In this document: piece by piece, positions 59,543 to 63,602 of the stretch
How positions within the stretch are numbered: the stretch's first letter is position 1
Layout: each line of letters opens with the position of its first letter
Assembly: GCF_003334355.1 (NCBI RefSeq)
Contig: NZ_QOWP01000009.1
Direction: 5' to 3' (one strand)
DNA: 64,000 bases
Source: Escherichia coli
Lineage (GTDB): Bacteria; Pseudomonadota; Gammaproteobacteria; Enterobacterales; Enterobacteriaceae
Notes under the pieces: model-generated
Databases searched by the model: none
What the model was told of the DNA's origin: nothing
Seen by the model: only the letters and a program-made list of their open reading frames with translations
Program-made: the position numbers and the translations under genes

Positions 59543-60349
59543 TTAACCGGCAGCCGTTTCAGTTTGATTAAATTTGTCCGCAACCGGACGATTCGCTTTC
59601 GGCGTAGCATACCAATAACCCAATCCCATGAATACGGCACCTGATAAAGTATTACCCAGCGTCACCCACAGCAGGTTATGACCAATACCCGCCAGCGTGT
59701 AGGCTTCGCTGTGGTTGCCGAACCAGGAGAGCGCGAACAGCGTCATGTTAGCGATAGAGTGCTCGTAGCCGGACGCGATAAATGCCAGCAGACACCACCA
59801 GATAGCGATAAATTTCGCCGCCCCTTCAGTGCGCAGCGCCATCCAGATTGCCAGGCAAACCAGCCAGTTACACAATGCACCTTTGAAGAAGAGTACCATT
59901 GCCGGTGCAGTGGTTTTAGCCAGCGCGACGGAGTGAACGATGCTGGTATCTACCGGCAGCAGGCTACCGCCGCCCCAGCTATAGAGCATGGCAACGAAGA
60001 CGGAACCGACCAGGTTACCCAGCCAGGTTTGCGGCAGGATTGCCCACATTTGCCCGTGGCTGATGCTGCCCGCTTTTACCCCAAAGGTGAGGAACATGGT
60101 GTGTCCGGTGAACAGTTCAGAACCGGCGATAATCACCAGCGTTAAGGCGATACCAAAGGTCGCGCCCATCACCAAAGGGCGTACGGATGGATCGAGCAAA
60201 TTACCGAGCGTGAAAATCAGGATGATCCCAAGACCCACATACGCGCCCGCCATGGCGGAGCTGACCCAAAAGCCGAGCGGGTTATTTGCCGACAGGCGTG
60301 CAATGCGCGCAGCGTTAGCCGCACACTTATTAATAGTGTCTGTAAACAT
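59543..60349 (-). CDS. nirC: Nitrite transporter (formate/nitrite transporter family)
   Basis: 268 aa polytopic membrane protein between nirD and cysG. Confidence 0.95.
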   Translation of the reverse strand: MFTDTINKCAANAARIARLSANNPLGFWVSSAMAGAYVGLGIILIFTLGNLLDPSVRPLVMGATFGIALTLVIIAGSELFTGHTMFLTFGVKAGSISHGQMWAILPQTWLGNLVGSVFVAMLYSWGGGSLLPVDTSIVHSVALAKTTAPAMVLFFKGALCNWLVCLAIWMALRTEGAAKFIAIWWCLLAFIASGYEHSIANMTLFALSWFGNHSEAYTLAGIGHNLLWVTLGNTLSGAVFMGLGYWYATPKANRPVADKFNQTETAAG

Positions 60350-60435
60350 TTGATTATCCTTTAAAAAATAAAAACAAAAAATAAAACAAAAAGTTTAAAA
60401 AATGTCCTGCAATATACCGAAGATTATTACAGGAC

Positions 60436-60466
60436 CATGCAAAAAGGGGAGGCATTGCGCCTCCCG
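60436..60466 (-). terminator. Intra-operon hairpin with T-tract between nirD and nirC
   Basis: GGGAGGC-(5 nt)-GCCTCCC hairpin followed on the minus strand by TTTTTGC. Confidence 0.5.
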
Positions 60467-60474
60467 TTAAAACA

Positions 60475-60801
60475 TTAACCGCGCAGCTGCACCACGCCGT
60501 CTTTCACTCGCGCTTCGTAATGTTTGACGGAAAACTGTTCGTCTTCCATGCACAAGCCGTCGCTTAAGCGAAAACGCTGTTTTTTCAGCGGGCTGGCGAC
60601 CCACAGCTCGCCCTGGTGTTCCGCAATCAGTCCGCGTGACAGCACGCTGGACTCGAAGAACGGGTCGATGTTGCTGATCGCAAACACCTGATCGCTGTGA
60701 TACGGGCGGAAAATCGCGACCTGCTCGTCACCTAACAGCGCGCAGACGCCGGTTTCAGGCAGGATGTCATCGATTTTGCAGATGTCTTTCCACTGGCTCA
60801 T
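60475..60801 (-). CDS. nirD: Nitrite reductase (NADH) small subunit
   Basis: 108 aa; start overlaps the nirB stop (ATGA at 60798-60801). Confidence 0.95.
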   Translation of the reverse strand: MSQWKDICKIDDILPETGVCALLGDEQVAIFRPYHSDQVFAISNIDPFFESSVLSRGLIAEHQGELWVASPLKKQRFRLSDGLCMEDEQFSVKHYEARVKDGVVQLRG

Positions 60802-63413: not shown

Positions 63414-63602
63414 ATTCACCTTTATATACTCCTTAAGGGGTATATTGCTGATTTGTATAAATTTTCTTAAGTCACGGAATTGTCTGATATTTCATGTTTG
63501 TGCAAAAAATAGACAAAATGAGCGGGTTTATAGAAATAGATGCACGTAGCGGGGGAAGAGAGGAAAAGGCCGGACGACGATAGTGCCGTCCGGCATGAGC
63601 AA

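Follow-up and report, generated by a model that had tools for sequence, protein, structure and literature searches.

The nirD-nirC spacer of the Escherichia coli nirBDC-cysG operon: an apparent ortholog of the Salmonella nirD terminator within a probable three-part control region

The 64,000-nt stretch of E. coli DNA analysed here (hereafter the window) carries in its last 7 kb, on the minus strand, the nirB-nirD-nirC-cysG operon. The open reading frames are those of nirB (63341-60798), nirD (60801-60475; 108 aa, 100% identical to E. coli NirD), nirC (60349-59543) and cysG (59524-58151). Between the TAA stop codon of nirD (60475-60477, minus strand) and the ATG start codon of nirC (60347-60349, minus strand; MG1655 coordinate 3,497,003) lies a spacer of 125 nt (60474-60350, minus strand). 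A window position p was converted to MG1655 as 3,496,877 + (60475 - p). A segment of 171 nt that takes in the spacer matches K-12-type strains at 100% identity and is found in single copy in each of 5,426 complete E. coli genomes. In coding-strand orientation the spacer is made up of UGUUUUAAC, a first hairpin (hairpin 1, 60465-60447), C UUUUU GCAUG, a second hairpin (hairpin 2, 60435-60404), the succession A U6 AAAC U5 G U4 A U6 G U5 A U6, and AAAGGAUAAUCAA, after which comes the AUG of nirC. The original prediction, made from the letters alone, had placed the genes, a 125-nt spacer and a hairpin at 60447-60465, all of which the reading frames and the sequence bear out, and the plus-strand string that it quoted is exact.

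The spacer region (151 nt) folds at -41.4 kcal/mol, against -27.2 +/- 3.3 kcal/mol for shuffled sequences (z = -4.26). A scan of 2 kb against Rfam at permissive E-values returned no family at its gathering threshold, the top match being sroE (22 bits for a threshold of 51), and IsrM was discarded as a sub-threshold chance match on the AT-rich plus strand. No annotation of the nirD-nirC element was found in E. coli records. Elsewhere in the operon region, a strong terminator-like hairpin lies upstream of nirB at 63569-63594 on the minus strand (10 pairs, 8 of them GC, then CTTTTCCTCT); it presumably terminates transcription of the gene before nirB, which in MG1655 is tsgA.

Hairpin 1 (GGGAGGC-GCAAU-GCCUCCC, 60447-60465, minus strand) begins 9 nt past the nirD stop codon and has a 7-bp stem with 6 GC pairs and a core folding energy of -13.6 kcal/mol. 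Its tail (60441-60446, minus strand) consists of a C and five U, the TTTTT standing at 60445-60441 and being followed by GC. It combines the features of an intrinsic terminator, namely a GC-rich stem of at least 5 bp, a short loop and a T-rich run within 0-2 nt, and a consensus scan, which read it as 8 pairs, 6 of them GC, with the tail CTTTTTGCAT, ranked it among the top two terminator-like sites of 6.5 kb. As the run holds 5 U and is set off from the stem by a C, a weak terminator is predicted. The TTTTTGC that the original prediction saw just after the hairpin is there; the later tracts, which it gave as T4 to T7, read T6, T5, T4, T6, T5 and T6 on the coding strand, with no T7 among them.

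We compared this spacer with its enterobacterial counterparts, starting from 80 fetched nirD loci, in 51 of which nirC comes after nirD, the same order as in the window; the comparison set holds 52 spacers in all, ranging from 67 to 402 nt. A homologue of hairpin 1 is present in 45 of the 52, beginning 3-10 nt past the nirD stop codon and folding at a median of -14.2 kcal/mol, and it has at least five T within the next 9 nt in 39 of these 45. In an alignment of 41 distinct sequences the stem is paired in 96.5% of cells, and at three of its seven pairs both partners have changed in a compensatory way (as in Leclercia, with GGGGGCGCAAUGCCCCC, and in Atlantibacter, with GGGCGAGG..CCUCGCCC); none of 500 column shuffles reached the covariation score, and slid-register controls all scored lower. 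The 19-nt sequence is identical at 18-19 of 19 positions between E. coli and Salmonella, Citrobacter and Klebsiella in most of the taxa compared, whereas four-fold degenerate sites of nirD and nirC are just 46-58% identical between E. coli and Salmonella, Citrobacter, Klebsiella or Kosakonia. Because its identity stands far above that of the degenerate sites and its stem covaries, hairpin 1 is, on the strength of these alignments, under strong purifying selection.

The loop of hairpin 1, GCAA(Y) (60458-60454), is itself at least 90% conserved in the 41 distinct enterobacterial sequences, even across compensatory changes in the stem, which exceeds what a terminator loop should need. It is a possibility that this loop serves as a sequence-specific binding site for some factor, beyond termination.

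REP/BIME or ERIC (IRU) identity of the E. coli hairpins was rejected for want of a core match: a core search found neither REP-like nor ERIC-like cores in any Escherichia nirD-nirC spacer, and each of the two hairpins is single-copy in the 64-kb window and in E. coli genomes. Outside Escherichia the same search identified REP-like cores in 10 spacers and ERIC-like cores in 6. At ten Citrobacter loci REP/BIME-type palindromes lie between the terminator hairpin and the Shine-Dalgarno sequence of nirC. An insert of ~130 nt, which we take to be ERIC/IRU-like, is present in six spacers, those of Salmonella arizonae and of some Citrobacter and Leclercia. In 29 of the 80 loci, among them those of Enterobacter cloacae (L034), Kluyvera (L030 and L054) and Lelliottia (L046), no nirC was found in the 1.5 kb that follow nirD; at many such loci the region past nirD leads into a GTGGATCAC... 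start that resembles cysG. Most nirC-less loci have no hairpin 1, although L028, L046, L065 and L076 keep a hairpin, and an apparent remnant of the nirC 3' end is seen in L021 and L028. This distribution suggests that nirC may have been lost repeatedly.

An "intra-operonic nirD terminator" has been studied in the nirBDC-cysG operon of Salmonella enterica by Wang, Chao, Matera, Gao and Vogel (NAR 2020; PMC7038943), where a stem-loop of -14.9 kcal/mol and a U track follow nirD. Deletion of the stem and U track (delta-sU) lowered nirBD RNA and raised nirC-cysG RNA, and with it the small RNA NarS repressed a nirDC-gfp fusion ~5-fold in place of ~30-fold; termination and 3'-end protection could not be separated in that work (PMC7038943). 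Our link to subspecies enterica goes through the subspecies arizonae and diarizonae, whose spacers both start with TTAATTTTGGGAGGCGCAACGCCTCCCCTTTTTTG (TTAATTTTGGGAGGCGCAACGCCTCCCCTTTTTTGTATTTTTTT) and match the published 'TTAATT' stop-codon region. Their hairpin folds here at -14.8 kcal/mol and shares 18 of 19 nt with hairpin 1 of E. coli, the one difference being a loop base (GCAAU in E. coli, GCAAC in Salmonella). The two hairpins occupy the same operon and the same position, 8-9 nt past the nirD stop, and in both a U run comes next and a NarS-targeted Shine-Dalgarno sequence, AAGGAUAAUCAA, lies downstream. Judged by sequence and position, hairpin 1 is to all appearances the E. coli ortholog of the Salmonella intra-operonic nirD terminator. 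The suggestion of a partial terminator, or of a processing or stability element, that sets nirBD against nirC-cysG is hence supported, and it is essentially the published Salmonella conclusion (PMC7038943). The element is already known from Salmonella, and the original prediction is correct but ordinary.

The second hairpin (GUCCUGUAAUAAUC-UUC-GGU(A)UAUUGCAGGAC, 60404-60435, minus strand), which had been missed in the first reading of the sequence, was found by folding between hairpin 1 and the T tracts. It has a 14-bp stem interrupted by one bulge and folds at -13.5 to -14.9 kcal/mol; the tail that follows is A and U6 in E. coli, and in the albertii clade it is UUAUUUAG. In the set of 52 spacers it is restricted to the genus Escherichia. 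Its lower stem is kept in all 12 aligned Escherichia sequences, with exchanges that are compatible with the structure (GC<->AU, GC/UA and UG<->CG), while the apical part is completely different between E. coli and the E. albertii clade. Folding energies across the genus go from -10.9 to -18.6 kcal/mol, the K-12 allele (AAUC) being weaker than the common AACC and GACC alleles. From its position and fold, we infer that hairpin 2 may be either a second weak terminator or the 5' cap, a terminal structure, of a processed nirC-cysG RNA.

Downstream of hairpin 2 comes the U-rich leader of nirC (60363-60402, minus strand), which reads T6 AAAC T5 G T4 A T6 G T5 A T6 and is a degenerate (T5R)n hexamer repeat. 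The 41 nt from 60403 to 60363 are 78% T; no other 41-mer on either strand of the 64-kb window is so dominated by one base, the runner-up reaching 54%. Tandem Repeats Finder assigned to the T tracts a period of 6 (4.8 copies) or of 12-13 (2.4 copies). Their length differs among strains: E. coli strain A4 (possum; L083, 159-217) has (TTTTTA) x9.8, which is an extra 30 nt in the region of window 60363-60392, other E. coli strains have one more T, and 30 sampled genomes fall into four length classes. The variation in tract length among strains, together with the period-6 repeat, makes replication slippage the best explanation of the repeated pattern. The tracts could be a neutral, slippage-made (T5R)n microsatellite without a specific function of their own, in a leader that need only be unstructured and U-rich, a reading to which we give appreciable weight, though short of preferring it. 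It is also consistent with the other genera, where the T-rich stretch varies in length and position or is broken by REP-like or ERIC-like inserts. T-richness somewhere in the spacer is nevertheless kept in nearly all genera of the 52-spacer set, and in Salmonella the removal of U track and stem takes away most of the NarS regulation (PMC7038943). The neutral reading touches the repeat pattern alone and is compatible with the control region that we favour. The conserved feature of the leader seems to be its U-richness and not the repeat.

One might also speculate that hairpin 2 and the length-variable (U5R)n act together as a tuning device particular to Escherichia, in which an attenuator or 5' cap is combined with slippage that, through the K-12, +1 T and +30-nt A4 alleles, would set a strain-specific NirC level or sensitivity to NarS and Hfq. 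Taken jointly with the separate option of a factor-binding loop in hairpin 1, this is a decidedly speculative reading to which we assign little probability.

The U-rich leader is a candidate substrate of RNase E, whose RN↓WUU consensus has 6 matches in the 41-nt stretch, compared with an operon-wide density of 0.014 per nt. Such a match is provided by each (G/A)U↓UUU unit; the enrichment follows trivially from base composition. In Salmonella, nirC has multiple 5' ends that lie in a uridine-rich region and depend on RNase E; all of them are processed, primary ends being found just for nirB and cysG (PMC7038943). This last observation argues against an AT-rich site in the spacer that would drive or silence nirC-cysG, whether as an internal promoter or UP element or through DNA curvature or a nucleoid protein. 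Extreme AT-richness with T tracts is what would recommend such a site. Yet a scan of the spacer found no sigma-70-like -35/-10 pair, the genomic SELEX promoter list has no internal promoter here, and the tracts are spaced by ~6 nt, out of phase with the DNA helical repeat, which makes this explanation very improbable.

The spacer can also be read as a small gene, since an ORF of 33 codons (MPPLFAWSCNNLRYIAGHFLNFLFYFLFLFFKG) spans it on the minus strand (60455-60354), from an ATG at 60455 to a TAA at 60356-60354, inside the Shine-Dalgarno sequence of nirC. This is probably, we assume, the historical 'nirE', a name for which a literature search returned nothing relevant. Its ATG, however, lies in the loop of hairpin 1 and lacks a Shine-Dalgarno sequence, 6 of 12 Escherichia sequences interrupt the frame with a frameshift or a stop codon, and the peptide is a mere translation of the T tracts into Phe and Leu. 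That the spacer encodes a small protein is hardly credible.

The 3' end of the spacer holds the predicted target of NarS, annotated in MG1655 as b4813 in the narK 3' UTR. The Shine-Dalgarno region of nirC, AAAGGAUAAUCAAAU (60348-60362, minus strand), which includes the first 2 nt of the AUG, is over its whole length (60362-60348) a perfect 15-nt complement of nt 144-158 of E. coli NarS, that is, of the seed UUUGAUUAUCCUUU and one further nucleotide. Perfect complementarity of at least 14 nt between the seed and the Shine-Dalgarno and start region of nirC is thus found in E. coli, and in an exact-complement search this was the longest complement of NarS on either strand of the 64-kb window. That search replaced one with RNAduplex, in which the 67-nt 3' part of NarS and long targets gave giant-loop structures no better than those of shuffles. 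The site is invariant in Escherichia and conserved across genera. In Salmonella, NarS pairs with positions -12 to +1 of nirC, and the 14-bp duplex has been probed there; Wang et al. also cite RIL-seq support in E. coli (PMC7038943). The ~130-nt insert of the S. arizonae spacer and of some Citrobacter and Leclercia spacers belongs to the same repeat family, in opposite orientation, as an insertion in an E. coli narK 3' UTR (L081, 3380-3470) that forms a long NarS precursor; as these copies belong to different species, no pairing within one cell is implied.

Published RNA data from E. coli bear directly on the junction. Adams et al. (eLife 2021, Supplementary file 2; PMC7815308) list a Rho termination region at MG1655 3,497,031(+), close to window position 60321, which is 28 nt past the A of the nirC ATG. 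[quoted passage not shown] There is thus a 24-fold drop across the nirD-nirC junction in aerobic LB, of which ~4-fold is Rho-dependent and ~6-fold is left when Rho is inhibited. The original prediction had staked itself on such a drop in coverage, which these counts supply. They also mean that nirD-nirC polarity in E. coli is partly Rho-dependent and not purely intrinsic; the Rho-dependent part would come from poorly translated RNA of the nirC leader and coding sequence. On the other strand, the same data place a Rho termination region at MG1655 3,496,855 (-), window ~60497 (+), for an antisense RNA running through the spacer and into nirD (262 and 12 reads without bicyclomycin, 405 and 66 with it; PMC7815308). 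This RNA may originate from a promoter-like site within nirC, at 59848-59876 on the plus strand.

The Rho region (Rho score 3.95, p = 6e-12; PMC7815308) could be taken to mean that the drop after nirD is in E. coli mainly the work of Rho, acting in the untranslated spacer or in early nirC, the hairpins being secondary. We consider this quite unlikely, as bicyclomycin leaves 149 downstream against 920 upstream reads, still a ~6-fold drop, the U-rich and C-poor spacer, with a single C in its 41-nt U-rich part, would be a poor loading site for Rho, and hairpin 1 is conserved far beyond the neutral expectation. 

Another account has hairpin 1 not terminating at all, but acting as a pure barrier to 3' exonucleases that stabilises nirBD after an RNase E cut in the leader. 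The shortness of the E. coli tail (C and U5) and the wealth of RNase E consensus sites in the leader are in keeping with it, as is the lack of any called Term-seq 3' end at hairpin 1 in aerobic cells: the curated set has none in MG1655 3,496,800-3,497,099 under three aerobic conditions, in which the operon is weakly expressed (PMC7815308). The TERMITe supplement likewise has no 3' end for the spacer, and in a preprint on HnrS nirD is mentioned solely as a non-target. Against a pure barrier stand the five or more T just after the stem in 39 of 45 homologues, a run that an exonuclease block would not need, and the rise of nirC-cysG RNA upon deletion in Salmonella, as expected from more read-through (PMC7038943). 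The ~6-fold drop that stays with Rho inhibited in E. coli points the same way, but differential decay could also give it. On balance, a pure barrier is unlikely in our judgement.

We therefore consider it highly probable that the nirD-nirC spacer acts within the nirBDC-cysG mRNA as a post-transcriptional control region of three parts. Its first part, hairpin 1 with its short U run, would act as a leaky intrinsic terminator, halting some of the polymerases after nirD, and would also shield the 3' end of nirBD from exonucleases on transcripts that end or are cut there. In the second part, the unstructured U-rich leader, RNase E would cut the read-through RNA into an nirBD and an nirC-cysG half, and this leader is probably a platform for Hfq, whose binding to the U stretch was proposed for Salmonella by Wang et al. 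(PMC7038943). The third part is the Shine-Dalgarno region with which the spacer ends; NarS, itself cut from the narK 3' UTR, would bind there and shut off nirC alone. The combined outcome would be more nirBD than nirC-cysG RNA, with nirC repressible without touching nirBD or cysG. The functional evidence, that is the terminator deletion, the RNase E dependence and the NarS pairing, is Salmonella work by others, and by analogy we infer the same mode of action for the E. coli element. Such an element would help to explain how a single operon yields much nitrite reductase (NirBD) and little nitrite importer (NirC), and how NarS can switch off NirC alone and so limit nitrite toxicity during nitrate respiration, a logic already published for Salmonella. 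What is added here is incremental: the constrained E. coli ortholog, hairpin 2, the polymorphic slippage repeat, the conserved loop and the Rho-dependent component.

The E. coli region differs from its Salmonella counterpart in several respects. Its U run is shorter and more interrupted, with U5 after a C where Salmonella has U6 and U7, and is also shorter than the U6-U7 of Citrobacter. The spacer is of 125 nt, against ~194 nt in the closest Salmonella sequence, and the distance from the U run to the NarS site is ~80 nt, against ~200 nt. E. coli has the genus-specific hairpin 2 and the hexamer T-repeat; the Salmonella spacer is without hairpin 2 and has an ERIC-like insert between the terminator and the Shine-Dalgarno sequence.

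Among other systems, the rplL-rpoB attenuator is the canonical case of an intrinsic terminator inside an operon. As in such intra-operon attenuators, a GC-rich stem-loop and U run stand here between cistrons, with partial read-through and graded expression; unlike in the canonical ones, the tail is weak in E. coli (C and U5), and the element is also needed, at least in Salmonella, for the regulation of the downstream gene by an sRNA. It differs too from REP-stabilised cistrons, since the protective structure after nirD is a terminator-type hairpin and not a REP element. The parallels named by Wang et al. are iscRSUA with RyhB and the RNase E-processed glmUS (PMC7038943), which are likewise discoordinate operons, where the upstream fragment is shielded by a structure at its 3' end and the downstream part is acted on by RNase E and an sRNA.
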